A stretch of DNA of 64,000 bases. Origin: an uncultured Sunxiuqinia sp. GTDB taxonomy: Bacteria > Bacteroidota > Bacteroidia > Bacteroidales > Prolixibacteraceae. The notes under the pieces are model-generated. The model searched no databases. It worked only from the letters and a program-made list of their open reading frames with translations, and was not told the origin of the DNA. Location: positions 1,003,470 through 1,067,469 of the forward strand of contig OZ223309.1 in NCBI GenBank assembly GCA_965140765.1. Reading direction: 5' to 3'. Below, in pieces: positions 49,168 through 61,703 of the stretch. The position numbers and the translations under genes were made by a program. The number at the start of each line of letters is the position of its first letter. Position 1 is the stretch's first letter.

Positions 49168-50082
49168 ATGGTTATTAAGATCCACCAGGCTTGCAGTACG
49201 AAAAACGCATTGTTTTACAATGAGCGGAAGGTTGACCGTCATTGGGCTTCGTTTTATCACAGCAGGAATATGCCTGTCTTAAACCCATTCCTGGGAGATA
49301 AAAATGATCGGTACAGGATATTTCAGGAGATTGAAGACCGAAATACCCGTGTTAAAAAGCCTGGATTGCATATATCCGTCAATCCAACTGTTAGTGATAT
49401 GGTCCGATTGGGTGATGTCGGTATCAGAACTGAGATTGGTAACCTGATGGAACACCTTGGCTACGGGAATCAGCCATACCTGGTTTATAAACACGCTGAT
49501 CTGGAACGGGTGCATTTTCATATTGTTTCTACACGTATCGATTGTGAGACTGGAAAGAGGATCAAAGACAGTTACGAGAAGGAAAAGACCCAGCGGTTCA
49601 TCAAAGGGCTTGAAGAAAAACATCAACTGATCAAAGATGAGCCAAGCCAGAAAATGAACTTTCGGTTTTCCGGTTCGAGTAAAAACCTGAAACAAAATCT
49701 GGAAAGCCTGTTTGCCCAGCTCAACCGAATGGAGTTTATTTCTTCCAGGGAAATGTATGACCAGGCGTTGGGACTATTTCAGGTGGAAATAAGACGGGTT
49801 GGCGGAGGGCATCTGGTTTTTGTAACGGATGAAAATGGCATACCTATCCGGCATCCAATAAGAACGAGTGATTTTGAAGAGAAACCGAAATTTTATTTGA
49901 AGGAAGATGTAAATCATATCGAAAAAGTGAGAATGAACCGCAAAGGAGGATTCCCTGAAAATTTAAAAATAGAATTATTGAAGGCGTTGCTCTATCAGTA
50001 CAATGCAAATTCAAAAGATTTCAATAGACGAGTTCGTAAAAGGACATCTGCCACTCGTCAGAAGAGAGGACGAAAATATTGA
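49168..50082 (+). CDS. Relaxase (MOBP-type HUH)
   Basis: N-terminal FYNE (catalytic Tyr), GLHISVNP, YKH.D.ER.HFHIVSTRID. Confidence 0.9.
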   Translation: MVIKIHQACSTKNALFYNERKVDRHWASFYHSRNMPVLNPFLGDKNDRYRIFQEIEDRNTRVKKPGLHISVNPTVSDMVRLGDVGIRTEIGNLMEHLGYGNQPYLVYKHADLERVHFHIVSTRIDCETGKRIKDSYEKEKTQRFIKGLEEKHQLIKDEPSQKMNFRFSGSSKNLKQNLESLFAQLNRMEFISSREMYDQALGLFQVEIRRVGGGHLVFVTDENGIPIRHPIRTSDFEEKPKFYLKEDVNHIEKVRMNRKGGFPENLKIELLKALLYQYNANSKDFNRRVRKRTSATRQKRGRKY

Positions 50083-50191
50083 TGTAACCCCATCGTTTTA
50101 TTAATCTGGATTCAGTCTCGGTACATGTTAAATTTATGGCTTATATTTACAGATTGTATGTTAAACTATATATAATCCAAACGAACTAATA

Positions 50192-52654
50192 ATGAGACCT
50201 CATTTGTATTTTAAAAATCCAGTAGAAGGAGCAAGAACACTAAAAGGGAGACCAGGTGGAGGTGGCAACGATGATGAAAATCAAAATAAGGGCGAAAAGG
50301 ATTACCGAAATTTGGCATCAACCTTTTCTGATTGCCTAGCAAAATATGAACTGGATTATGAAGAAAGAGTCGAGGGTAGAACAATTGAGATCGAAAATCA
50401 TTTTGATTCCATCGAGTTAAATTTTTTTGCAGGATTCGATGAAGTGAAGTTTAAGGCTTATTATATTGATAATTTTGGACTTGAATTGCTACGATTATCT
50501 CATTTTAACCGTAAGGGATTATTTGCTATTGAAGATGAAAAGAAATTTAACTCTTTCTTTAAACAGCTAAAAATTTTTATTAGTAATCAGGAGAATGATG
50601 AAGAAAAATTGTTTGATGCGAAGATTAAGTTCATTAAAACATTTAAGCTCTATTCAACTGCTGATCGAATAGGAAATATCAATGATTACGCTGTAATTCA
50701 TTTGTCATTTATGGGGATTGGATCTTTCATTGAAGATGATGTTGTCGCACCTCAGAAAAATGGATTGTCGTTGTTTCTTGAAGAAAATGGGATAGAATTT
50801 GTCTTTGAGGAAGAATATGGAGAGATATTTAATATCGACGACGATATACTTAAGTTTATTCTGGATAATTTTGACTTCATTTATGCCACATGTTCAGGAT
50901 CCGGAGCTATTGTAACGCCTAGTAAGTTCAATCTGCCTAAGAGGGAATTTGGTTTTGAAATTACTAACCCATACGAGGAACTACCTATTATTGGGGTGAT
51001 TGACTCAGGAGTTTCAGCTCAAACTCCTTTATCTACTATTTTAATAGGAACAGATGGTGAATATGATACAACAGGAACAGGCTCTTTTAATGATAATGCC
51101 AACCATGGAACAGGAGTAGCAGCATTCGCAGCATTTGGAAATAAATTAATCCCGGGATATAATGGAGCTGTGGAGGCTGATGCTAAAATATTGCCTATAA
51201 AAATTATTGATGGTAGCAGAGGGGCTATCTCCCAGAAACAAATAGTTGATCTCATTTGGAAAGCAAATTTTGTATATGGCGTAAGGATTTTTACGCTGAC
51301 AATAGGCTATACGGATTTTCCATTAAAAGACAATCAGGAATTTTCATCATATGCTGCAATGCTGGACAAAGTGGCCTCTGATCTAGATGTATTAATTTTT
51401 ATTTCTACAACCAATCACGTTATAAATAATTTAGCGGTTAAAGATTATCCTGAGAAATTTCAAATTAGCAACGCTAATATAGCACCACCTGCAGAAAGTA
51501 TGAACAATATGACAGTAGGTGCTACGGCAAATAATTTCGAAGACAATGGTGTTTTTGGCCTTGCGGGAAATCAAACATTCCCGGCATTATATTCGCGTAA
51601 ATTTCATTATAATTTTGCGGATGGCGATGTCTTTAATCGTGCCACAATTAACAAGTATTTACGTAAGCCTGACATTTTAATAGGTGGTGGGGATTATTAT
51701 GAAACTTCTTTGTTTGGAATGGAAGTATTGGATGAACAAGGAAAAACATGTTTGGAAGTATTGTCTTCTGATTTAAGGGAGAGGACATTTAAAGCTTTAG
51801 GAACCAGTTATTCAACTCCTCTTGTGGCTAATCTTGCAGCAAGGCTTCTTAAAATATATCCGGATTTAAATATGCAAAGTGTAAAAGCGCTTCTAATCAA
51901 TGCTTCTAGTGAGATTAAGTTGGGAGATATTTTTGATGGTTTCTCAAATAGTATGAAGGATCGTATTATCGGGTATGGAGAGTTGAATGATCAATTTTTA
52001 TTTTCAGATGATGAAAAGGTAACATTGGTTATTGAAGATGTAATACAGATAGATGAAATTAAGTTGTTTCCCCTTAATCTACCTGAGTATTTAAATGAAG
52101 CGCAAAAGAAAAATGGATTATTAAAATTCTCGACAACCTTGTGTTTCAAATTTCAACCCAAAACGAATAATCAATTAACTTATTGTCCTATCCATTTGAC
52201 ATATGTAATTGGTAAAAATGTAGAGATAGAAAATACAGAATGGGAAGAACGAGTAAATGAAGATGGAGAAGTAAATTTAGTTGAAGTGCCTTCAGGATAT
52301 AATGGGAGTAAGTCTGAAAAATATAGGATGGGCAATAAAGGATGGGTTCAGGACTTTTACTATAGAGAAAAGATCGTAAGTAATGTACAGAAAAATGCTT
52401 TCAATGTTAAACGGCAAGATATTATTGATGAAGACAATACTTTCAAACTAGCTATTAATGCTGCATTTCATAAAACCATGACTGATGCAGATAAAGAGTC
52501 ATTCGAAAAGAAAATTCCATTTAGCCTTGTAGTAACTATAGAACAAAAACCGTTAAAGGATGAAAGGTTGGATTCTTTATATGAAGGACTGATGGCCGTT
52601 AATGAGCTAGAAGCTATATCAAAACTGGATCTTGAAGCTGAGGCTGGTTATTGA
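50192..52654 (+). CDS. S8 subtilisin-like serine protease, IetS-like defence/toxin type
   Basis: Catalytic triad GVIDSG, NHGTGVA and GTSYSTP; no signal peptide; adjacent AAA ATPase. Confidence 0.88.
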   Translation: MRPHLYFKNPVEGARTLKGRPGGGGNDDENQNKGEKDYRNLASTFSDCLAKYELDYEERVEGRTIEIENHFDSIELNFFAGFDEVKFKAYYIDNFGLELLRLSHFNRKGLFAIEDEKKFNSFFKQLKIFISNQENDEEKLFDAKIKFIKTFKLYSTADRIGNINDYAVIHLSFMGIGSFIEDDVVAPQKNGLSLFLEENGIEFVFEEEYGEIFNIDDDILKFILDNFDFIYATCSGSGAIVTPSKFNLPKREFGFEITNPYEELPIIGVIDSGVSAQTPLSTILIGTDGEYDTTGTGSFNDNANHGTGVAAFAAFGNKLIPGYNGAVEADAKILPIKIIDGSRGAISQKQIVDLIWKANFVYGVRIFTLTIGYTDFPLKDNQEFSSYAAMLDKVASDLDVLIFISTTNHVINNLAVKDYPEKFQISNANIAPPAESMNNMTVGATANNFEDNGVFGLAGNQTFPALYSRKFHYNFADGDVFNRATINKYLRKPDILIGGGDYYETSLFGMEVLDEQGKTCLEVLSSDLRERTFKALGTSYSTPLVANLAARLLKIYPDLNMQSVKALLINASSEIKLGDIFDGFSNSMKDRIIGYGELNDQFLFSDDEKVTLVIEDVIQIDEIKLFPLNLPEYLNEAQKKNGLLKFSTTLCFKFQPKTNNQLTYCPIHLTYVIGKNVEIENTEWEERVNEDGEVNLVEVPSGYNGSKSEKYRMGNKGWVQDFYYREKIVSNVQKNAFNVKRQDIIDEDNTFKLAINAAFHKTMTDADKESFEKKIPFSLVVTIEQKPLKDERLDSLYEGLMAVNELEAISKLDLEAEAGY

Positions 52655-52663
52655 TCAAGTTCG

Positions 52664-53674
52664 TTAGCTGTTTTTATGGTGAGATAAAAGCTTCTTCCAA
52701 ACTGCTGTATCAACAGAAAAATCTGGATTGATAGAATCTGATGAAAATAAAGTTCTTTTAATTGCGGTTATTAATGTCCTTTGAATAATAAAATATGATA
52801 AGCCAACCGAATAATTTACAATCTCGGTAAGAGCTTTCTTCTCCTTCATTTTAAATGGGGTATTGTCCAGCGTTTTTGAAATAAGTTGGCGGATCTGTGT
52901 TTTATTTGGAATATCTAATTTCATTTTCACATCAAATCGTCGCAATAATGCTTCATCGATCATTTGCAATTGGTTCGTCGCTGCAATAACAATACTCTTT
53001 TGTGGCAAATAGTCAAATAGTTGTAAAATCGTATTTACAACTCTTTTCATTTCTCCATGATCCTGGCTATAATCACGAATCTTCCCAAGCGAGTCGAATT
53101 CATCCAGAAAAATAATGCAGTCTTCGCTTGTTGCTCTTCTGAATATCTTTGCCAGGTTCTTACTCGTCTCACCTAACTTTGAGGAAACAATTGCTCCTAA
53201 ATTAATGACATACATCATCTTTTCAAGTTCCCCGGCCAATACATATGATGCAAGGGTTTTCCCACAGCCTGAGGGACCGTAAAAAAGAATCTTATTTGAT
53301 ACGGGCAATTCGAATTTATTGAGGACTTCGATACCATGATGTTCTTTGACAAAAAATTCCAGTTCTTCCCTTACATCACTGGAACAAACGAGATTATCAA
53401 AAGAGTAATCAGAAGTAAGTTTTTCAATTATTAATTCATTGATCTCTCTTTCGTCCTCTCTTAAATAATATTTTTGCGAACCAACTTTTGCCAATCCTTT
53501 TGTTTGTTGTGCACGTAATCCTTCTTTTAAAATGGATTGCATTTGCAGCGCGAAATTGACTTTTTTGGTTTTTTTCGAATGCTCTATAAACCGATTTAAC
53601 ACATCAAGAAGCTGTTCCTGATCATTTTCGAGGCCATACCTTGCAATATCTTTTATGAAATCAAACTGACTCAT
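52664..53674 (-). CDS. AAA+ ATPase, IetA-like
   Basis: GPSGCGKT, IIFLDEFD, DHGEMKRVVN, AATN, ALLRRFD. Confidence 0.9.
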   Translation of the reverse strand: MSQFDFIKDIARYGLENDQEQLLDVLNRFIEHSKKTKKVNFALQMQSILKEGLRAQQTKGLAKVGSQKYYLREDEREINELIIEKLTSDYSFDNLVCSSDVREELEFFVKEHHGIEVLNKFELPVSNKILFYGPSGCGKTLASYVLAGELEKMMYVINLGAIVSSKLGETSKNLAKIFRRATSEDCIIFLDEFDSLGKIRDYSQDHGEMKRVVNTILQLFDYLPQKSIVIAATNQLQMIDEALLRRFDVKMKLDIPNKTQIRQLISKTLDNTPFKMKEKKALTEIVNYSVGLSYFIIQRTLITAIKRTLFSSDSINPDFSVDTAVWKKLLSHHKNS

Positions 53675-53679
53675 GCTTA

Positions 53680-53687
53680 CAAAAGTA
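53680..53687 (-). promoter_or_regulatory. Bacteroidetes -7 promoter element for the AAA ATPase
   Basis: TACTTTTG on the minus strand matches TAnnTTTG, 5 nt before the ATG. Confidence 0.5.
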
Positions 53688-53833
53688 ATATATTGAACTT
53701 TGCCTTTACAGAGTTAATGACTTTTTTTTCAACAAACAGATGTTTGTATTTGTTTATCAATCACTTTCGTATGTGAACGATGCCTATCCACTCTCATAAT
53801 AAATAAAGGCAAAAAAGTTAAAAGAAACTTTTA

Positions 53834-56578
53834 TCAATTTCGAAAGAAGAATTTTAAGTAAATATCACCTAACTCCGAATTATATTCCATAGATAGATAT
53901 TTCTCCAATTTTACTTTAATCCTTGATTCTTTACTAAATTGTTTAAAAAAAGTTTCTGACTTTTTATTAAAAAGAAGCCAATCTAACTGGAATTTGTCAT
54001 AATCATATTCGTAGAAATCAAATTTTAGTAACCATTCGCAATATGGAGAAATTTTCACATCCTTGGGAATCAATGTGAGTATGTACCTTCTATCAATACC
54101 AAGACGGTAAACTGCAGATATAAAATTTAAGTAAGTGTAGTTTTTATGTTCTTGTTCAATTGGACTGCTAAGCATTTCCTTGACCTCTCTTGAAATACTT
54201 TGATTAACAAACTTCTTGAATATTTCTTCATTTTCAAGTGAAACCAATTCCTGAAGATATAAATCAAGAAAGATCAATGAGCTAATACTATTTTTTTTTA
54301 GATAATCATTAAAAAAATCTGATATCAATTTTTGTTTCTCATTAGTTACAACCTTACTAAGATAAATCAAATGGTGAAAATCCGAACAAGATTTTTTGTT
54401 GGCAATTTTTAAGATTATCATGTCTGCCAAGCTATCGCTAATTCTAAATTGAGCTCTTTCAATTAATATCTTGCTTATGGTCTTGGGTAAATTGGTGTTT
54501 CTTAAATATGCCTTATTTAGCCATAACTCAATCAGTTCTTCCAATTGTTCCGAAGTGAATAATTCCTTTTTTGCATTGATAAAAAACTTAAGTTCATTAT
54601 TTGAGTTAAAAAATAAATTTGACGAGTTAAATCTCAGAAAATTTATTAAGTTAGACACTAAAGTATCTGTTTGGTTATTTTTTTGCAATGCAGTCTTAGA
54701 CAAAAGAAACAAGCAATTACTGAAGATTTCTGCTACTTTTTGTTTGGCGTCAAAACTCTTTGTATACTGAAAAAATTCTTCTTTAGCTGTGAAACCACCA
54801 AAAATGGACTTTTCATGATTGTTTTGTAAAAAATTATTGAAAATTTCGAGAAGTTCATTCAAACAATCCTGTGTTGTAACTATCTGATTAATATTGTTTA
54901 TGGAGAATATTTTCTGTAGCTTCTTTGGTGAAATAAATAAAATCGCATTTAGTATGTGAAACCCGTTAAACTCTTTTAGATGTCCTCTATATTTTTCAAT
55001 TTTGTGACTAATCAATAAAGCCTCAAATATTTTAGATAATATTCCTGTAATATTTCCATACTTATTGCCGATTAGATAGTTCCATTCATAATATCCAAAT
55101 AGTGAGGCCATTTGAGAAAGTAGTTGTCTCACATAGTTTGGCCCTGAAAAACTCCCTTCATTTTCATAGACATCCCTAATTTCGATTATTTGGGCGAATA
55201 AATCATCAACTCTATAACGAGTCTTTGAAATCAATTTTTCTTCTTTGATTTCAATAATAATCCGATGAACATCTGCATCAACATTTTCTTTTATTTCACA
55301 AATTATCTGGTCTAAATCTATTTCCCTAATATAATCCAGAATGGATTCTTTATCTTTTAATGAGTAATTACCTTTTATATCATAATAGAGGTACTTCAAA
55401 TTATAACTAGCTACAAAATATTTCAGAGAATTTTGTTGCCTATATTTTTCCCTCAAATACCTATAAATGAGGTACGCATCTTTATAATTATTAGATGCCA
55501 AATTATATGCGACGTAGCCCGTTTTAAGGTCATAGTCTTCTTCATTTCCCATTGTAGCATCAATATACTCATAGGCTTGAAGAAATTTCAGATCATGATA
55601 TAGACATTGAATACATTGGCAACTCTTTGCGTGATAATCTTTTTGTATTTGAAAAGTTACACTATTATTATCTAAATAAGGGAAAGGGTAGTTCAAATCG
55701 TAACCAAAGATTCCACCCGCTAACTTCAAACGTGCTTTATTCGGATCCCTATAAGATTCTATGTAAAAAACCAAATTTTGATTTAATCTGTTAATGACAT
55801 ACTCGACTTTATCTTCATAATCTTCAACTGATGCTCTCTCTAAAGACACAACTAGTTCCTTAGAAATCTCAATCCTGTCTTTATCTATTTTTACATTTTC
55901 GAAAAACCAATATAACTCCGGATTTAAAGTATATAAAGTAAAGGTCTCATAATGAAAAGCAACCTCCTTTTCGTCATGGAAAGGATAGAGATTAGAGAGA
56001 GTGTTAGGAGGAATAAAATTAAAACCTTCAAATTTTTGAAAAAAATCAAATAGTTGCTGAACGATATGTTTAGATTCCACAATTACACTTTCCAAACTAC
56101 TTTTTGTTTCAATATCGTAAGTTGAACTATTATCACTCGTTACAACTTCGTTTACTTCTTTAGCAAAATCAGCAAGAATTTTCTCTTTATTATCCCCTTT
56201 GTATGAATTTAACGGCTTTGCATCCTTTGGCCTTATTAGATGTGCAGAAATCTGCGGGACTACTTGCCAATTACATGATTTTACAATCAATGGAAAGACT
56301 GAAATACCTTCTTTTGCCCTTCTCTCAAAAAGTCGGGGAACCTCTTCTTCTCTGATAAAGTCAGAATTTAAAAAATTTGTCGATACAATAAGTACTGCTG
56401 CATCTGCTCTTTCTATGGCTTTTATAATCTCAGGATTAATCTCATCCCCACATTTCAAATCTGAATCAGACCAACCTTTTATCTCATTGGAGTACTTTTC
56501 GAAAATTCGTAGATGTTCTTCAACCTTCTTTTTTTCCTCTTCGTCTTTATGACTATAACTAATAAATATACTTTTCAT
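53834..56578 (-). CDS. TIR-domain protein with long helical C-terminal body (DSR2-like)
   Basis: IFISYSHKD...WSD..L..G.....I..AI..A...VLIVS.NFLNSDFI.EEEV TIR with catalytic-position E79, followed by about 750 aa of helical repeats. Confidence 0.85.
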   Translation of the reverse strand: MKSIFISYSHKDEEEKKKVEEHLRIFEKYSNEIKGWSDSDLKCGDEINPEIIKAIERADAAVLIVSTNFLNSDFIREEEVPRLFERRAKEGISVFPLIVKSCNWQVVPQISAHLIRPKDAKPLNSYKGDNKEKILADFAKEVNEVVTSDNSSTYDIETKSSLESVIVESKHIVQQLFDFFQKFEGFNFIPPNTLSNLYPFHDEKEVAFHYETFTLYTLNPELYWFFENVKIDKDRIEISKELVVSLERASVEDYEDKVEYVINRLNQNLVFYIESYRDPNKARLKLAGGIFGYDLNYPFPYLDNNSVTFQIQKDYHAKSCQCIQCLYHDLKFLQAYEYIDATMGNEEDYDLKTGYVAYNLASNNYKDAYLIYRYLREKYRQQNSLKYFVASYNLKYLYYDIKGNYSLKDKESILDYIREIDLDQIICEIKENVDADVHRIIIEIKEEKLISKTRYRVDDLFAQIIEIRDVYENEGSFSGPNYVRQLLSQMASLFGYYEWNYLIGNKYGNITGILSKIFEALLISHKIEKYRGHLKEFNGFHILNAILFISPKKLQKIFSINNINQIVTTQDCLNELLEIFNNFLQNNHEKSIFGGFTAKEEFFQYTKSFDAKQKVAEIFSNCLFLLSKTALQKNNQTDTLVSNLINFLRFNSSNLFFNSNNELKFFINAKKELFTSEQLEELIELWLNKAYLRNTNLPKTISKILIERAQFRISDSLADMIILKIANKKSCSDFHHLIYLSKVVTNEKQKLISDFFNDYLKKNSISSLIFLDLYLQELVSLENEEIFKKFVNQSISREVKEMLSSPIEQEHKNYTYLNFISAVYRLGIDRRYILTLIPKDVKISPYCEWLLKFDFYEYDYDKFQLDWLLFNKKSETFFKQFSKESRIKVKLEKYLSMEYNSELGDIYLKFFFRN

Positions 56579-56619
56579 TCAATTTGTATATTAATGTTTA
56601 CAAGCTAAAATACCGAGTG

Positions 56620-59600
56620 TTACATAATATTATAACGGCTATTTCGACCCTGTTCTATCCAAAAGTCTACCACTTTGTTTTTTATGCCCCAATAACTTAG
56701 CACAAACGCGATTGTTGATAAATGGAGAAAATACGCTGGTTTATAACTATTGTTGAAGTCGTGCAATTTATACCTTTCAAGGATTAGCAATAATTTTTCA
56801 CTGTATTGTTTCAAACAATCTTCATCCTTTAATTCCCTAACCCATATAGCTACCTTTTTTAAGGTAAATAAGAGGTTAGGATCACTTATGGAAAGTATTT
56901 TTGATAAAACAAGCTCAATACAATTCTCAAATGGGGACACTTTTGAATTTTCAAAAAGATACCGAGTTAATTCTTCCAACGCATGAAAGTAATATTCTTC
57001 GGTATCATCCATGAGTCTTTGAAGCAAACTACCTTCACCTTTCTCAATTGACAATAGACGATCTATTTTTTCTGTAATTTTCTCATAATCAGTTAGTCTC
57101 TTTAAGGCATGTTCTTCTTTAAGAAGGAAGATTCTCATTTCATCCAGCAGGTCTTTAAAATTTAATAATATTTTATTCCGATTTCCCCATTTTTCTATTT
57201 TAGAAAGTTCTCTTCTTAAAGTATTATATAGCGATAGCGTTTCTTCTCTTGACCATTTTATTCCATCGGAAAGAGATTTATTTTTTGTGAAATTGCGTAA
57301 TTGGATGAAATGTTCATTTGTTGCAGACATGCGGCCGTCTTTATCAAATCTTACCCCTGAAGCAAATAGATATTTGCTTTTTAATATTGCTGTTTTTAAA
57401 TTATTGATAATCCTTACATTGTTTTGTGCAAAAATTAAAACAACATACCAAATATTATAACTATCAAATTTGCCAAGATCAGTATTTTCAAGGTATTCTT
57501 TTATTTTTGTTTTTTGTTTAAAATTGATTATCGGCTCCAAATTTCCCAGTAGATACATCGACCGTATGAAATGAGTAGGAATTTCTTCTATCATTTCCTC
57601 TATTTGCAGTTTTATAGATGTTCTTATCAAATATTTTTCGGAATGCTTAATTATTTTTCTGCTCGAAAGAATATATAAATAATTAATAGCTAATTCACTT
57701 TTATGTCTGTTATTCAAAATTGATTTAATTATATGTGCTATGGTTTTATTGGTTGCCAAATAACTTAAACTCTTTTTCACAAATGAATGTATGGGGAAAG
57801 CTATTTCGGAGAACTGCTTACCTTCTCTTAGTTGTAAATCCCAAATTTTTAAAAAAGTGTTTTCCCATTCATTTGCCGGAATAGCTGCAACTATTTCTGA
57901 TAAAAAGTACAGTATGCTATCTTTAATTTTTTCAAGGGTTGCTTCGGATATATATGCTCTATAAAGCGATTGATAAATTTCTGATAATTTCTCGTTTAGT
58001 TTTTCTGAATTGACAAAGTCTTGTCCTATCCTTTTTGTAAAATTACCATCTTGATATTGAAGACTGTAATAAAGGGCAGGAAAAGGAAATTCTTCAAATA
58101 CTAGCTTGAAGGATGGATACCAATCTTTATGGTCTATAAATCTGGCATTTTGAACCTCAAGAAATAACCCCGATTGAATTAAATATTGCACATATTGAAC
58201 CCCCAACAAGAACCTATCATTTCCTGACATGTCATGGTAGAAATCAAAATCTCCTCTCGGATAAGGTCTTATGCTATTATCTATATTCTTGTTGATTTTA
58301 TCAGATAGAATCTCAATATTATTTCGAATGTCTTTAGCTCCAAGCGCTTTAAGCTTATTGATCTCATCAAGAATTTTATCATCTCTTTCCCATCTCACTG
58401 AGCTTCTTGTGAGTAGAAGAAGATAATAGGTATTGATTTTTTCCTGATTTGATAAACTAGAAAAAGATGCCAAATCTTTTACAAAATCTTCTAATAGATT
58501 ATATGCATCTTTTGGGTTGATTTGTGCTAATAAAGAAGCTTTAAGAGCAACATAATGGGCATTAGGTGTCCAATTATTCAGATGGAATAATAAGTCGGGA
58601 AAACTGAAATTGAATGCATGATAAAGAGCTTTTTCATACATTAGTTCGTCATCATTATCCTTCGATAGCTTCTTTTCAAAAATTTTATCAAAAGCCAAAT
58701 TTGGGTTACTTAGAATAGTCCCTCTTATATGCAATAAGTTCAATGGTCTTGCAAAAGGAACCGGGACATTATCTTTAATTTTTTCAAATGTTTGGTCAGG
58801 TATTACGTGCATAGAAAAGATTAAATAGGAGTCGTTTAATGACAATAGTAGTAACTTGAAAAAGAAAGGTAAAATTTCGTGTGAACTAAAATATTTATAG
58901 TTTCTATCGATATATCTCAAAAAATCTGTTGATGTATTTTGCTCATAAACATCAAAATTTTTCACTTTGGAATACGCTTTTAGCTCCCAGAGCTTGTCAA
59001 TATTTTCGATCAGTTTCTCTTCATCCATAGCATGCCCAAACACGCTTTTACTAAGCTCCTCCCATATACTTTTATAAGATTTAATTCTTTCTTCTTCAGT
59101 AACGTTGTTTTTATTGTCTGACAGATAAGTTAGAAATTTTTTAAGTACTACTTTCCCTTCACGGTTTGTTGTTCCTAAAAACTCTCTAATTTCATTAGAA
59201 GCTAGTGAAATTTTGACTATTCGATGATTTTTAAAAAATAGTTCTTTATCAATTGTCAGTTCATCATTTCCAATATCAACTAAATAAATCTTAAAACTAT
59301 TGTTTAAAGATTCTTCCTTGTTATTGGCCGTTTGGTAGGATTTTTTTTCGATAATATCCCTAACCCAATTTATCCATGCAATAAAATTAGGATCTATTCC
59401 GGAAAAACCGATGAGACAAAAGGAATCTTGTAAGAGTGTAATTCTCATTAATTGAGTAAAAGCTTCATGCTTTTGGGGATAGTCTTGATAATCATCTTTA
59501 CAAATTACATATCGTTTATGGACATCTCCGTCAAATCCAAAAAAATTCTCTTCTCTATCCAGGGGGATCGACCCATGAAGTTTAATGATATTCCTGTTTT

Positions 59601-60465
59601 TCTGTAACTCCAATTCCGAAGAATCTTTCACAACATTTATGCGTTCATTGTCTATCTTCGTGGTTAAGGAATTTATTTCTATAGTGATATTCTCATTTGC
59701 TTTTCTCAGTTCATCTATTTTTTCATCTATATTCCCCAGATGATCATTAAAAGCGGGCACAGATGAAGTATCCGAAGAATTTGATTCATGCATTTCCAAA
59801 TCAGGTCGACTTTCTGTCGACTTTTTTGTCATGTATGAGGAAATTTGTTCCTCATTTTTTTTAATTTGGCTATTTAACTTTACTATCTTTTCAGAAATAC
59901 TGTCAAAAATAATCTTTTGGTCTTCATAGGCGCACTCAATCGCATTATCATAATTCGTAGTAAAAATGTTGTTCCACTTCAAAGAGATTAATCTTTTATG
60001 CAGATCTAGGCTATTCAAAGGCACTCTTTTACTTGCTCTTTTTGAATGTAAAAATTTCAAGCTATATTCATCAGTATCTAATGACTTTTCGATGATAGGG
60101 ATATGTTCTTCGATGTAGGCATCTATTGATTCTCGGAAACCTTTTCTCTTGATATATTGGGAGACAAGATCCAAATATCCTTCTCTGCATATTATATCCG
60201 CAATAATAAATTGTTGATTAAATATTTTTGAAGCTTTAGGAATCCCCAACCTATCAATTCCCTTCATTTTTAATTTGTGCTCTATTTCGGGCTTGTACAT
60301 CTCAATTACCATGTCGCAAAGTAGCTCTGACCAGTTTGGGAAGATATTGCTGATGTTTTTGCTAAAGCCAGAGCCAACCAGCAGTGATACTTTTTCTCTA
60401 TCAAGTAAATTTTTTAACGATTTTAGAGCAGAAACCGGGTTGTCAGATAATATTTTATCGTCCAT
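56620..60465 (-). CDS. Large SIR2-like domain protein (sirtuin NADase plus helical C-terminal region)
   Basis: LLVGSGFS, NWSELL, FTTNYD, IKLHGS and LIGFSGIDPNF sirtuin motifs; 1281 aa. Confidence 0.88.
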   Translation of the reverse strand: MDDKILSDNPVSALKSLKNLLDREKVSLLVGSGFSKNISNIFPNWSELLCDMVIEMYKPEIEHKLKMKGIDRLGIPKASKIFNQQFIIADIICREGYLDLVSQYIKRKGFRESIDAYIEEHIPIIEKSLDTDEYSLKFLHSKRASKRVPLNSLDLHKRLISLKWNNIFTTNYDNAIECAYEDQKIIFDSISEKIVKLNSQIKKNEEQISSYMTKKSTESRPDLEMHESNSSDTSSVPAFNDHLGNIDEKIDELRKANENITIEINSLTTKIDNERINVVKDSSELELQKNRNIIKLHGSIPLDREENFFGFDGDVHKRYVICKDDYQDYPQKHEAFTQLMRITLLQDSFCLIGFSGIDPNFIAWINWVRDIIEKKSYQTANNKEESLNNSFKIYLVDIGNDELTIDKELFFKNHRIVKISLASNEIREFLGTTNREGKVVLKKFLTYLSDNKNNVTEEERIKSYKSIWEELSKSVFGHAMDEEKLIENIDKLWELKAYSKVKNFDVYEQNTSTDFLRYIDRNYKYFSSHEILPFFFKLLLLSLNDSYLIFSMHVIPDQTFEKIKDNVPVPFARPLNLLHIRGTILSNPNLAFDKIFEKKLSKDNDDELMYEKALYHAFNFSFPDLLFHLNNWTPNAHYVALKASLLAQINPKDAYNLLEDFVKDLASFSSLSNQEKINTYYLLLLTRSSVRWERDDKILDEINKLKALGAKDIRNNIEILSDKINKNIDNSIRPYPRGDFDFYHDMSGNDRFLLGVQYVQYLIQSGLFLEVQNARFIDHKDWYPSFKLVFEEFPFPALYYSLQYQDGNFTKRIGQDFVNSEKLNEKLSEIYQSLYRAYISEATLEKIKDSILYFLSEIVAAIPANEWENTFLKIWDLQLREGKQFSEIAFPIHSFVKKSLSYLATNKTIAHIIKSILNNRHKSELAINYLYILSSRKIIKHSEKYLIRTSIKLQIEEMIEEIPTHFIRSMYLLGNLEPIINFKQKTKIKEYLENTDLGKFDSYNIWYVVLIFAQNNVRIINNLKTAILKSKYLFASGVRFDKDGRMSATNEHFIQLRNFTKNKSLSDGIKWSREETLSLYNTLRRELSKIEKWGNRNKILLNFKDLLDEMRIFLLKEEHALKRLTDYEKITEKIDRLLSIEKGEGSLLQRLMDDTEEYYFHALEELTRYLFENSKVSPFENCIELVLSKILSISDPNLLFTLKKVAIWVRELKDEDCLKQYSEKLLLILERYKLHDFNNSYKPAYFLHLSTIAFVLSYWGIKNKVVDFWIEQGRNSRYNIM

Positions 60466-60566
60466 TTTGTAAATATATGATTTAGCAGAATAAAGATATT
60501 GAAATAAAAAAAGAGGATTAAGTTTTTCTGGTTATTTTCTCTTTAACTCAAATTCCTGTCAAATTT

Positions 60567-60727
60567 ATTGATCGCTTCCCGGAACGGTAAAGGGGAACTC
60601 GCTTTTCGTGGCTCGTTTCCTTCGGATGCGTTCATTCCGGTTACATCGGAATGACATGCACCCCGTTGACCTGATCCGGGACAGCTCAATGGTGGTATGC
60701 CAAAAATTTAAGTTTAATGGCGTGCCA
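60567..60727 (+). promoter_or_regulatory. Structured upstream element, copy 1 (before ardC)
   Basis: Long imperfect stem 60567-60595 with 60661-60690, plus second stem 60693-60702 with 60718-60727; homologous to 62541-62714. Confidence 0.7.
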
Positions 60728-60788
60728 GAGATCCCCTTGGTTTCTTCAAGGGTGCCAAAGCAAGTCCGAAAGGCATCGGCAGTTTCCC

Positions 60789-61703
60789 ATGAATACTTCA
60801 TTTGACATTTACGAAATGGTTACCAATCTGATTATCGAACGCCTTGAAAAAGGTGTCATTCCTTGGCAGATGCCGTGGAAAGCCGAAACAGGCTTGCCCC
60901 AGAACATGGTTTATAAAAAGGTTTACCGTGGTTTTAACTTCTGGTTGTTGCTGACCGTGGTCGATCAGTTCGGTTCCCCATTTTTCCTGACCTTCAAACA
61001 GGTCAAGGAGCTTGGCGGGCATGTCCTGAAAGGCGAAAAAGGTTTCCCAGTTGTATTCTGGAAAATCCTTGAAAAGGAAGAGAAAGACGGCGGTATCGAC
61101 CAAATCCCGTTCCTCCGGTACTATACCGTTTTCAACCTGAAACAGACCGAAGGGATCGATGAAAGCAAAATCCCGTCCACGGAAGCCTACGATCACAATT
61201 TTGACCCGATCGGGCAAGCCGAGCAGTTGATCGAATACTGGTCTGATTGTCCCGAGATCAAACTAGACCAGTCCCATGCTTTCTATTCACCTACAGGTGA
61301 CTATATCGGGATGCCAAACCCTCGGACTTTCTTTCAGGACGAGCAATTTTACAGCGTTTTGTACCATGAAAGTGTCCACGCTACCGGCCACATTAACCGA
61401 ACAGGCAGGCATGAAAAACTCCCAGACCACAAGTTTGGTTCACAAGACTACAGCCAAGAGGAACTGGTAGCTGAACTGGGTGCTGCCTACCTATGCCATA
61501 TCACCGGTATCCAAAATGCCACGATTGACAACAGTGCCGCATATATCAAAAGCTGGATCGGTAAATTCAAGGAAGATAAAAAGATGTTGCTGACAGCTTC
61601 GTCCCAGGCACAAAAGGCAGTGGACTATATCCTGGAGCACCAATCCAATCCCAACCGGCCAGCAAGCGCAAACCGGGCAGGGCAATTGGCGGAGGCGGTT
61701 TAG
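60789..61703 (+). CDS. ardC: ArdC-family anti-restriction ssDNA-binding protein with zincin-like domain
   Basis: LEKGVIPW..PW, YRGFN, FLTFKQ...GG.V.KGEKG, LRYYTVFN, HESVH (HExxH), EELVAE; ATG at 60789. Confidence 0.92.
   Translation: MNTSFDIYEMVTNLIIERLEKGVIPWQMPWKAETGLPQNMVYKKVYRGFNFWLLLTVVDQFGSPFFLTFKQVKELGGHVLKGEKGFPVVFWKILEKEEKDGGIDQIPFLRYYTVFNLKQTEGIDESKIPSTEAYDHNFDPIGQAEQLIEYWSDCPEIKLDQSHAFYSPTGDYIGMPNPRTFFQDEQFYSVLYHESVHATGHINRTGRHEKLPDHKFGSQDYSQEELVAELGAAYLCHITGIQNATIDNSAAYIKSWIGKFKEDKKMLLTASSQAQKAVDYILEHQSNPNRPASANRAGQLAEAV

Follow-up and report, generated by a model that had tools for sequence, protein, structure and literature searches.

The window, a stretch of DNA of 64,000 nucleotides from an uncultured Sunxiuqinia sp., carries on its minus strand a gene (53834–56578, stop codon included) that joins a TIR domain to a body of the type known from DSR2, a phage sensor of Bacillus subtilis. 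This gene, P0001, is an intact open reading frame of 914 amino acids (aa) and is present as a single copy in the source genome of 5.15 Mb. Its product is probably an autonomous single-protein anti-phage sensor-effector of the DSR2 superfamily, which would act through residue E79 of the TIR domain. The body (aa 169–914) is almost certainly homologous to the MID domain and the HEAT-like C-terminal domain (CTD) of DSR2. DSR2 is among the best-studied single-protein phage sensors, and the literature consulted regards it solely as a sirtuin.

Relationship of the Body to DSR2

The body of P0001 is encoded by 53837–56074 (minus strand) and comprises a MID-like region and a HEAT-like CTD. Its approximately 745 residues have no match among the models of Pfam, PADLOC and NCBIfam. 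A first AlphaFold2 (AF2) model of P0001, made with seven sequences, was poor (pLDDT of 57.5). In a Foldseek search of the PDB, its 14 best matches were DSR2 chains, with E-values between 8e-7 and 1e-3; the next match came at E = 0.02 only. The second model, made with an alignment of 43 sequences, has a mean pLDDT of 79.3 and a pTM of 0.74, with most of the body at approximately 85–97. The top 31 PDB matches of this model are all B. subtilis DSR2 chains (E-values from 2.3e-9 to 7e-3), and the first match to another protein follows at 1e-2. The TM-scores to the DSR2 chains are 0.40–0.50, or 0.51 when normalized on 8ygo_A, a chain that holds the CTD only. In the AF2 model the body is mostly helical, with a small β-containing subdomain at approximately aa 206–310, which agrees with the helical body of about 750 aa that an earlier note on this DNA had described.

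For the comparison of sequence profiles, DSR2 orthologs were recovered by scanning species genomes with the SIR2 fragment of DSR2. This yielded proteins of Virgibacillus alimentarius (L015) and Ornithinibacillus contaminans (L016) that are both 97% identical to DSR2 over the SIR2 region, as well as some 60 remoter relatives. A homolog search with the SIR2 domain of P0190, a SIR2-headed protein from Bacteroidota, gave Bacteroidota relatives only, without B. subtilis DSR2. An iterated hidden Markov model (HMM) search was then seeded with the body of the V. alimentarius ortholog alone (aa 281–988; Z = 1e6; inclusion at 1e-3). Firmicutes bodies were retrieved first, with full-length colinear matches. 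The profile of the third iteration, built from eight Firmicutes bodies, matches the SIR2-headed proteins of Bacteroidota down to 3e-37, the DUF4365-headed protein P0256 at 1.4e-25 and the MmeI_N-headed protein P0141 at 9e-8, the latter two within the body and over approximately 550–700 aa. The TIR-bearing members enter at iteration 4. For these as for the SIR2, DUF4365 and MmeI_N members, the matches extend colinearly over about 700 aa.

Profile–profile alignment with hhalign gives the same result. The family of P0001 was represented by a narrow alignment of the bodies of six TIR- and Mrr-headed sequences (A2) and by a broad one of 43 non-SIR2 bodies (A3). Eight bodies of the DSR2 clade match A2 with a probability of 98.6% (E = 1.3e-15) over 653 columns, positions 16–734 of the DSR2 body pairing with positions 11–749 of the family body, and they match A3 with 100% (E = 3.1e-42) over 661 columns. 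A3 is also matched by three DSR2-type sequences (98.6%, E = 9.5e-16, 649 columns) and by a single DSR2-ortholog body (97.4%, E = 9.3e-12, 573 columns). One or three DSR2 sequences against the narrow A2 give a weak C-terminal match of 0.7–1.2%; significance appears once either side is a broader profile. The resemblance is far above chance, as the eight bodies match the reversed A2 with 1.1% only (E = 0.047, 23 columns). As a further control, the body of P0002, the SIR2 protein encoded next to P0001, was aligned to A2 (0.1%, E = 0.41, 90 columns) and to the eight DSR2-clade bodies (1.0%, E = 0.055, 46 columns). The structural and the profile comparisons thus both return the match to DSR2 by which the earlier note had proposed to check its reading of the body.

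That note had based the colinearity of both bodies on quoted DSR2 strings. The V. alimentarius ortholog reads LAYHGKYDEMKKFI..EDDYKKAFFLACLGRWEESYNLY, YDFFVDPENFDYKKFIPSWL and RYLEILMNHF, which is near-exact to the quoted strings. Moreover, hhalign pairs the same segments: LYHDLKFLQAYEYI...EDYDLKTGYVAYNLASNNYKDAYLIY of P0001 with LAYHGKYDEMKKFI...EDDYKKAFFLACLGRWEESYNLY of the ortholog, YCEWLLKFDFYEYDYDKFQLDWLL with YDFFVDPENFDYKKFIPSWLKN, and ELGDIYLKFFF with RYLEILMNHFI. The strings in the note were therefore essentially correct. The best-conserved motif of the superfamily is a C-terminal signature, PYCEWLLKFDFYEYDYDKFQLDWLL in P0001 (aa 845–869; 53972–54046, minus strand), which aligns to YDFFVDPENFDYKKFIPSWL of DSR2 and of which W849, F863 and W867 are invariant in A3.

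The TIR Domain and the Linker

The head of P0001 (aa 1–145; 56144–56578, minus strand) is, judged from its sequence, a TIR domain with a glutamate, E79, at the catalytic position. Pfam TIR_2 matches aa 4–104 at 6.2e-12 with 46.5 bits (cut-off of 28), Pfam TIR matches with 24.4 bits (cut-off of 21.3), and the PADLOC model of ThsB1 covers aa 1–150 at 3.6e-25. In a profile search of the PDB, the domain matches the plant TIR NADases RPV1, L6 and RUN1. The codon of E79, the predicted catalytic residue, lies at 56342–56344 (minus strand). E79 is the sole invariant glutamate of the motif FIxxxE[VIL]P (F74-I75-x-x-x-E79-[VIL]-P81) in all five TIR-bearing relatives, among which E77 and E78 vary, and it falls on the catalytic glutamate of RPV1, RUN1 and L6 in the profile alignment to the PDB sequences. 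The earlier note had likewise placed a TIR domain at about aa 1–140, with E79 at the catalytic position. Neither Pfam nor PADLOC gives a SIR2 match at this N-terminus. P0001 is therefore no sirtuin; it combines a body of the DSR2 superfamily with a different head. Head and body are joined by a linker (aa 146–168; 56075–56143, minus strand), recognizable by the low pLDDT of the AF2 model (below 50 at aa 145–168) and by the point where similarity starts between two relatives, P0003 and P0005, and this is the junction where heads are exchanged.

Exchange of Heads on the DSR2-Type Body

In a word-based search the close family appears tiny, with six relatives in 5.8 billion proteins. When a profile of just the body was searched exhaustively, 555 cluster representatives matched at E ≤ 1e-3, of which 157 reached E ≤ 1e-30. 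Heads were classified for 150 listed representatives of these 555 together with the close relatives, 156 sequences in all. Eight head types were found on the DSR2-type body: MmeI_N, SIR2, DUF4365, PIN_12, SMEK_N, EAD11, Mrr-like and TIR. MmeI_N is the commonest head (50/156), next to SIR2 (35/156), DUF4365 (9/156 in the seed search), TIR (5/156) and Mrr_cat_2-like (3/156). The N-terminal region is short or absent in 24 sequences, and the head of another 30 was not assigned by the seed search; a Pfam scan of 15 of these 30 gave PIN_12 (nine), DUF4365 (three), SMEK_N (two) and EAD11 (one). TIR is thus a rare head on this body. Among the listed clusters at 50% identity it occurs in two only, represented by P0006, which stands for the group of P0001, and by P0134.

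The clearest example of exchange is the pair formed by P0003, with a TIR head, and P0005, with an Mrr-like head. Their bodies are 75% identical over 749 residues, starting from aa 167 and aa 197, respectively, and their N-termini are unrelated. Both genes lie 7–8 bp 3′ of an MmeI-like type IIG restriction-modification gene (64% identical to each other; 1261–1267 aa), which is preceded at both loci (L001:5337-12170 and L002:5895-12829) by an HTH_3 gene. The pair is a clean natural swap of a TIR head and an Mrr-like nuclease head in the same genomic context. MmeI_N being the commonest head, and P0003 and P0005 standing beside MmeI-like enzymes, may hint that heads are exchanged with restriction-modification genes nearby, or that the two are functionally linked. 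The region 3′ of P0005 (L002:12917-19815) encodes P0012, a protein of 1241 aa without Pfam match, and then an SMC_N/AAA_23 protein of 809 aa, two candidates for additional, uncharacterized defence genes.

In a tree of the bodies (FastTree topology, supports not considered), the TIR group lies inside a nuclease-headed clade and the TIR and Mrr-like heads are interleaved. On this basis, the TIR domain has most likely replaced a nuclease head, and probably not a SIR2 head directly. The idea in the earlier note that the SIR2 effector was swapped for TIR on the same scaffold holds insofar as the same body does carry SIR2, as well as seven other heads, but the direct replacement of the one by the other is not what the tree suggests.

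The MID-like region additionally contains a cysteine cluster, CxCxxC (C320, C322 and C325; 55604–55621, minus strand). Its cysteines are conserved in at least 90% of the 43 non-SIR2 bodies, and the cluster is present in 208 of the 223 Bacteroidota-type members of the body family regardless of their head, compared to none of the 20 proteins of the Firmicutes DSR2 clade. The cluster is a possible metal site, and such a candidate site may have been gained or lost within the superfamily.

Genomic Context and the SIR2 Neighbor

P0001 is located in a low-GC stretch of the window, from approximately 50.0 to 60.5 kb (GC of 0.28–0.33, versus 0.42–0.46 around it). This island is flanked by a relaxase gene (49168–50082) and an ArdC-like gene (60717–61703) of a conjugative element, names that derive from translations read by eye and from the Pfam families assigned to their counterparts on L010. 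It consists of four genes, encoding IetS (50192–52654, plus strand) and IetA (52664–53674, minus strand), the TIR protein P0001, and P0002, a SIR2 protein of 1281 aa (56620–60465, minus strand). The source-strain run assembles the island as one contig of 10,927 bp (49676–60602). Short contigs at its right edge (60573–60691) are approximately 312–328x deep versus about 8x, so that the island appears to end on this side in a repeat of many copies.

P0002, the upstream neighbor, belongs to a populous Bacteroidota family. It matches Pfam SIR2_2, the PADLOC model of Dsr2 (PDLC02184) at 5e-34 and the NCBIfam model of Dsr2 (NF041819) with 119 bits, where the cut-off of the model is 1400. The possibility that P0001 and P0002 are tandem paralogous DSR2 bodies was considered and rejected, as neither BLASTP nor hhalign shows a relationship; the alignments given above place the sequence of P0002 outside the DSR2-body family. 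The protein of the island that databases would call Dsr2-like is therefore not the one that bears the DSR2 body. Conversely, the same two Dsr2 models do not match P0001, nor do they match a DSR2 ortholog of 97% identity (L015:3965-6931). As they miss a true ortholog and weakly match P0002 with its unrelated body, they are not diagnostic for the body of B. subtilis DSR2, and the name Dsr2 seems to cover two different body types.

P0001 and P0002 are on the same strand and separated by a gap of 42 bp. The neighbors vary for the homologs of both genes, and the adjacency of SIR2 and TIR is therefore not a conserved pair. In five contexts, the gene upstream of the P0001 homolog is a type IIG gene (two), a TraG-like gene (one), or another or unannotated gene on a short contig (two). 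The gene 3′ of the P0002 homologs encodes a 563-aa protein without known function on L007, a CoiA-like nuclease on L008 and L009, and a DUF4238 protein on L010. The L007 locus (L007:2711-9797) is syntenic with the island, with a SIR2 gene (product 59% identical to P0002), a variable gene, an IetA-like AAA gene and a convergent gene. P0133, the 563-aa protein in the variable slot, was considered as a relative of P0001 and rejected, as it is unrelated; without any family match, it is a further candidate cargo gene.

A Bacteroidota-type -7 box, TAAATTTG (60560–60567, minus strand), was found with a pattern scan approximately 95 nt upstream of P0002 and is a candidate promoter for P0002 and P0001. 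A further TAnnTTTG box lies directly before ietA. Since this pattern is not enriched in the window, the boxes are to be regarded as consensus matches only. Scans for sigma-70 promoters and for terminators were uninformative, their counts being at shuffle expectation, and a search for RNA runs of this locus gave none.

The body family was found in none of the 11 same-genus and none of the 25 same-family genomes that were searched, which fits horizontal acquisition. In general, its distribution is patchy and borne by mobile elements, in defence islands. As a side observation, the slot that has the relaxase gene on one side and the ArdC gene on the other (49168–61703 in the window) looks like a hotspot for defence cargo in this family of conjugative elements: in the same slot, a Draconibacterium element (L010:1-12800) carries genes for a KAP NTPase, QatB, TatD, a SIR2 homolog, DUF4238 and AbiV.

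Proposed Mechanism and Alternative Explanations

DSR2 provides the model for how P0001 may work. Its SIR2, MID and CTD regions form X-shaped dimers through swapping of the MID, and two dimers associate head to head into a tetramer by SIR2 contacts. A monomer of the tail tube protein is bound through its domain D1 by the CTD and MID, which rearranges the protein and opens the NAD+ pocket of the SIR2 domain; NAD+ is depleted and the infection aborts (PMC10981675; PMC11850899; PMC10973363; bioRxiv 10.1101/2021.12.14.472415). By analogy, the body of P0001 would dimerize and capture a protein that the phage produces while infecting the cell. An abundant structural protein is the most likely candidate, possibly the tail tube protein. 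Binding of this ligand would rearrange the body and bring the N-terminal TIR domains in an active arrangement, in which they would hydrolyze NAD+ by means of E79, causing the infection to be aborted. A function in defence, the depletion of NAD+, the direct sensing of a protein and the nature of the trigger are all proposed on the analogy with DSR2. That the trigger is the tail tube protein in particular is rather doubtful.

Several observations weigh against this reading. The identity between P0001 and DSR2 is only 10–12%, so that the surface which binds the ligand is not conserved and the trigger of DSR2 gives no basis for naming that of P0001. At the level of direct sequence searches, no DSR2 chain was found in the PDB by phmmer with P0001 or with the A2 or A3 profile, even at E ≤ 1-10, so that the link to DSR2 needs profile–profile or structural comparison. 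For the TIR part of the model, AF2 confidence is low, with a pLDDT below 50. Furthermore, DSR2 is a pre-formed tetramer that is activated allosterically, which has been contrasted with TIR domains that need oligomerization (PMC10981675; PMC10973363). As P0001 has no SIR2 core, its activation step cannot be equal to that of DSR2. The output of the TIR domain could also be a signaling nucleotide instead of NAD+ depletion, given that its best match in PADLOC is ThsB, a signal-producing TIR protein. The gap of 42 bp before the TIR gene holds no TAnnTTTG -7 box in the pattern scan, and P0001 and P0002 are for that reason probably co-transcribed in this genome. Lastly, for every TIR-headed, nuclease-headed and Bacteroidota member, the reading is built on sequence and predicted structure. 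The single-gene interpretation of the earlier note is thus partly retained: the neighbors differ in all five homolog contexts, but in this genome the gene is probably transcribed together with the SIR2 gene.

These points bear on the alternatives to different degrees. The probable co-transcription of both genes from the box upstream of P0002, combined with the match of the TIR domain to ThsB1 and of the P0002 SIR2 domain to ThsA models, would fit a two-gene, Thoeris-like system, in which P0001 senses the phage and makes a signaling nucleotide that switches on P0002. Such a system is improbable, as the pairing does not recur in the five contexts of P0001 homologs and three contexts of P0002 homologs have other 3′ genes; in addition, Pfam finds only SIR2_2 in P0002, and no SLOG or Macro domain for binding of a ligand. 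The same body moreover carries nuclease and PIN heads, and these act as terminal effectors instead of producing a signal. The position of P0003 and P0005 directly behind type IIG enzymes, together with the frequency of the MmeI_N head, could also mean that the protein is an accessory or second layer of restriction-modification that acts with the MmeI-like enzyme and was merely relocated beside another gene in the window. This, too, is hard to favor, since no such enzyme adjoins the gene in the window or on L004, L005 and L006, defence genes cluster without being functionally dependent, and B. subtilis DSR2 works alone (bioRxiv 10.1101/2021.12.14.472415).

It is still less probable that the TIR domain serves as scaffold or adaptor, or lacks catalytic activity, and that P0001 works by sequestration of a structural protein of the phage. 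Binding by DSR2 does conflict with the self-assembly of the tail tube protein (PMC11850899) and the adaptor-type heads EAD11 and SMEK_N occur on the body, but the glutamate at the catalytic position is invariant in the five TIR-bearing members and most of the other heads are enzymes. A helical-repeat protein with another cellular role, present in the island by chance, could be imagined because the clade is known from sequence alone. This is very improbable in view of the homology to a proven defence protein, the heads typical of immune effectors, the position among the cargo of a mobile element and the patchy distribution. The interpretation of P0001 as a single-protein sensor-effector is therefore preferred.

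Novelty and Significance

That immune sensors swap their heads is well known, for instance from Avs, CBASS and short Argonautes. For the DSR2 body, no description of TIR or nuclease heads was found in the searchable literature, although they may have been noticed earlier, and such variants are not mentioned in the accessible parts of Garb et al. and of the DSR2 structure papers. This agrees with the statement in the earlier note that no named system has this architecture, as do PADLOC, NCBIfam and Pfam. The sensing body of DSR2 is a widespread exchangeable module, with 555 cluster representatives and at least eight head types. The models of Pfam, PADLOC and NCBIfam are at present blind to it, which is a reason for annotation pipelines to recognize the DSR2-type body as such.

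The presence of TIR, PD-(D/E)xK and PIN heads on one body suggests that the body acts by changing the proximity or oligomeric state of the heads. Juxtaposition is what activates TIR domains and nucleases, in contrast to the lid allostery described for DSR2, so that head proximity or oligomeric state would be what ligand capture primarily changes. Tentatively, and with more reserve than conviction, it can be proposed that the DSR2 body is a general, NTPase-free chassis for pattern recognition rather than a sirtuin-specific regulator, as the unrelated heads with which it is combined number at least eight (SIR2, TIR, three PD-(D/E)xK-type nucleases, PIN, SMEK and EAD11), and that the TIR-headed and Mrr-like-headed pair would sense the same Bacteroidota phage protein. 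How one scaffold activates a pre-assembled, allosterically controlled SIR2 domain and also an oligomerization-dependent TIR domain is a testable question, for which this pair is a near-isogenic natural head swap.

Comparison with Known Systems

DSR2 of B. subtilis 29R (PDB 8WY8, 8K98, 8WKT, 8YGO and others) and P0001 are both single polypeptides in which a flexible linker joins an N-terminal NAD-directed head to a body of approximately 700–745 aa. Their bodies, consisting of a MID and a HEAT-like CTD, are homologous and colinear from end to end, share the C-terminal motif F/Y-D-Y-x-x-F-x-x-x-W-L, and are both encountered in defence islands or mobile elements. The head, however, is a TIR domain with E79 in P0001 and a SIR2 domain with the catalytic histidine H171 in DSR2, which makes the SIR2-mediated tetramer core of DSR2 impossible in P0001. 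The body of P0001 additionally has the CxCxxC cluster, which is conserved in its relatives but absent from the Firmicutes DSR2 clade. DSR2 is activated by direct binding of the tail tube protein and inhibited by DSAD1, but at the given level of identity the binding residues are not transferable to P0001.

The SIR2-headed proteins of Bacteroidota, annotated only as 'SIR2 family protein' (approximately 1,028 aa; for instance P0190 and P0189), belong to the same CxCxxC body clade as P0001. The A2 body profile matches them over their full length at approximately 1e-57. Besides having the C-terminal motif, they carry a SIR2 domain whose best solved relative is that of DSR2 (3e-41). These proteins are common, with 1,064 clusters at E ≤ 1e-20, in contrast to the rare TIR-headed form. 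The nuclease-headed sisters (Mrr_cat_2-like P0005 and P0008, MmeI_N-type proteins such as P0135, and those with DUF4365 or PIN_12) have bodies up to 75% identical, the same junction and the same defence-island contexts. Their predicted output would be cleavage of nucleic acid, compared to turnover of NAD+ for the TIR domain, and none of them has been named.

Other TIR-containing defence proteins, i.e., ThsB of Thoeris, TIR-STING of CBASS, TIR-APAZ of SPARTA and the TIR-headed Avs/NLR-like proteins, resemble P0001 in combining a TIR catalytic glutamate with a sensing module. The TIR domain of P0001 matches ThsB1, as expected for a Thoeris system, but its neighbor P0002 shows SIR2_2 only, without SLOG or Macro, and the pairing is not conserved. 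Unlike these proteins, P0001 has no STAND NTPase, STING, APAZ/Argonaute or SAVED module and no conserved ThsA partner; its predicted sensor is a helical body of the DSR2 type.

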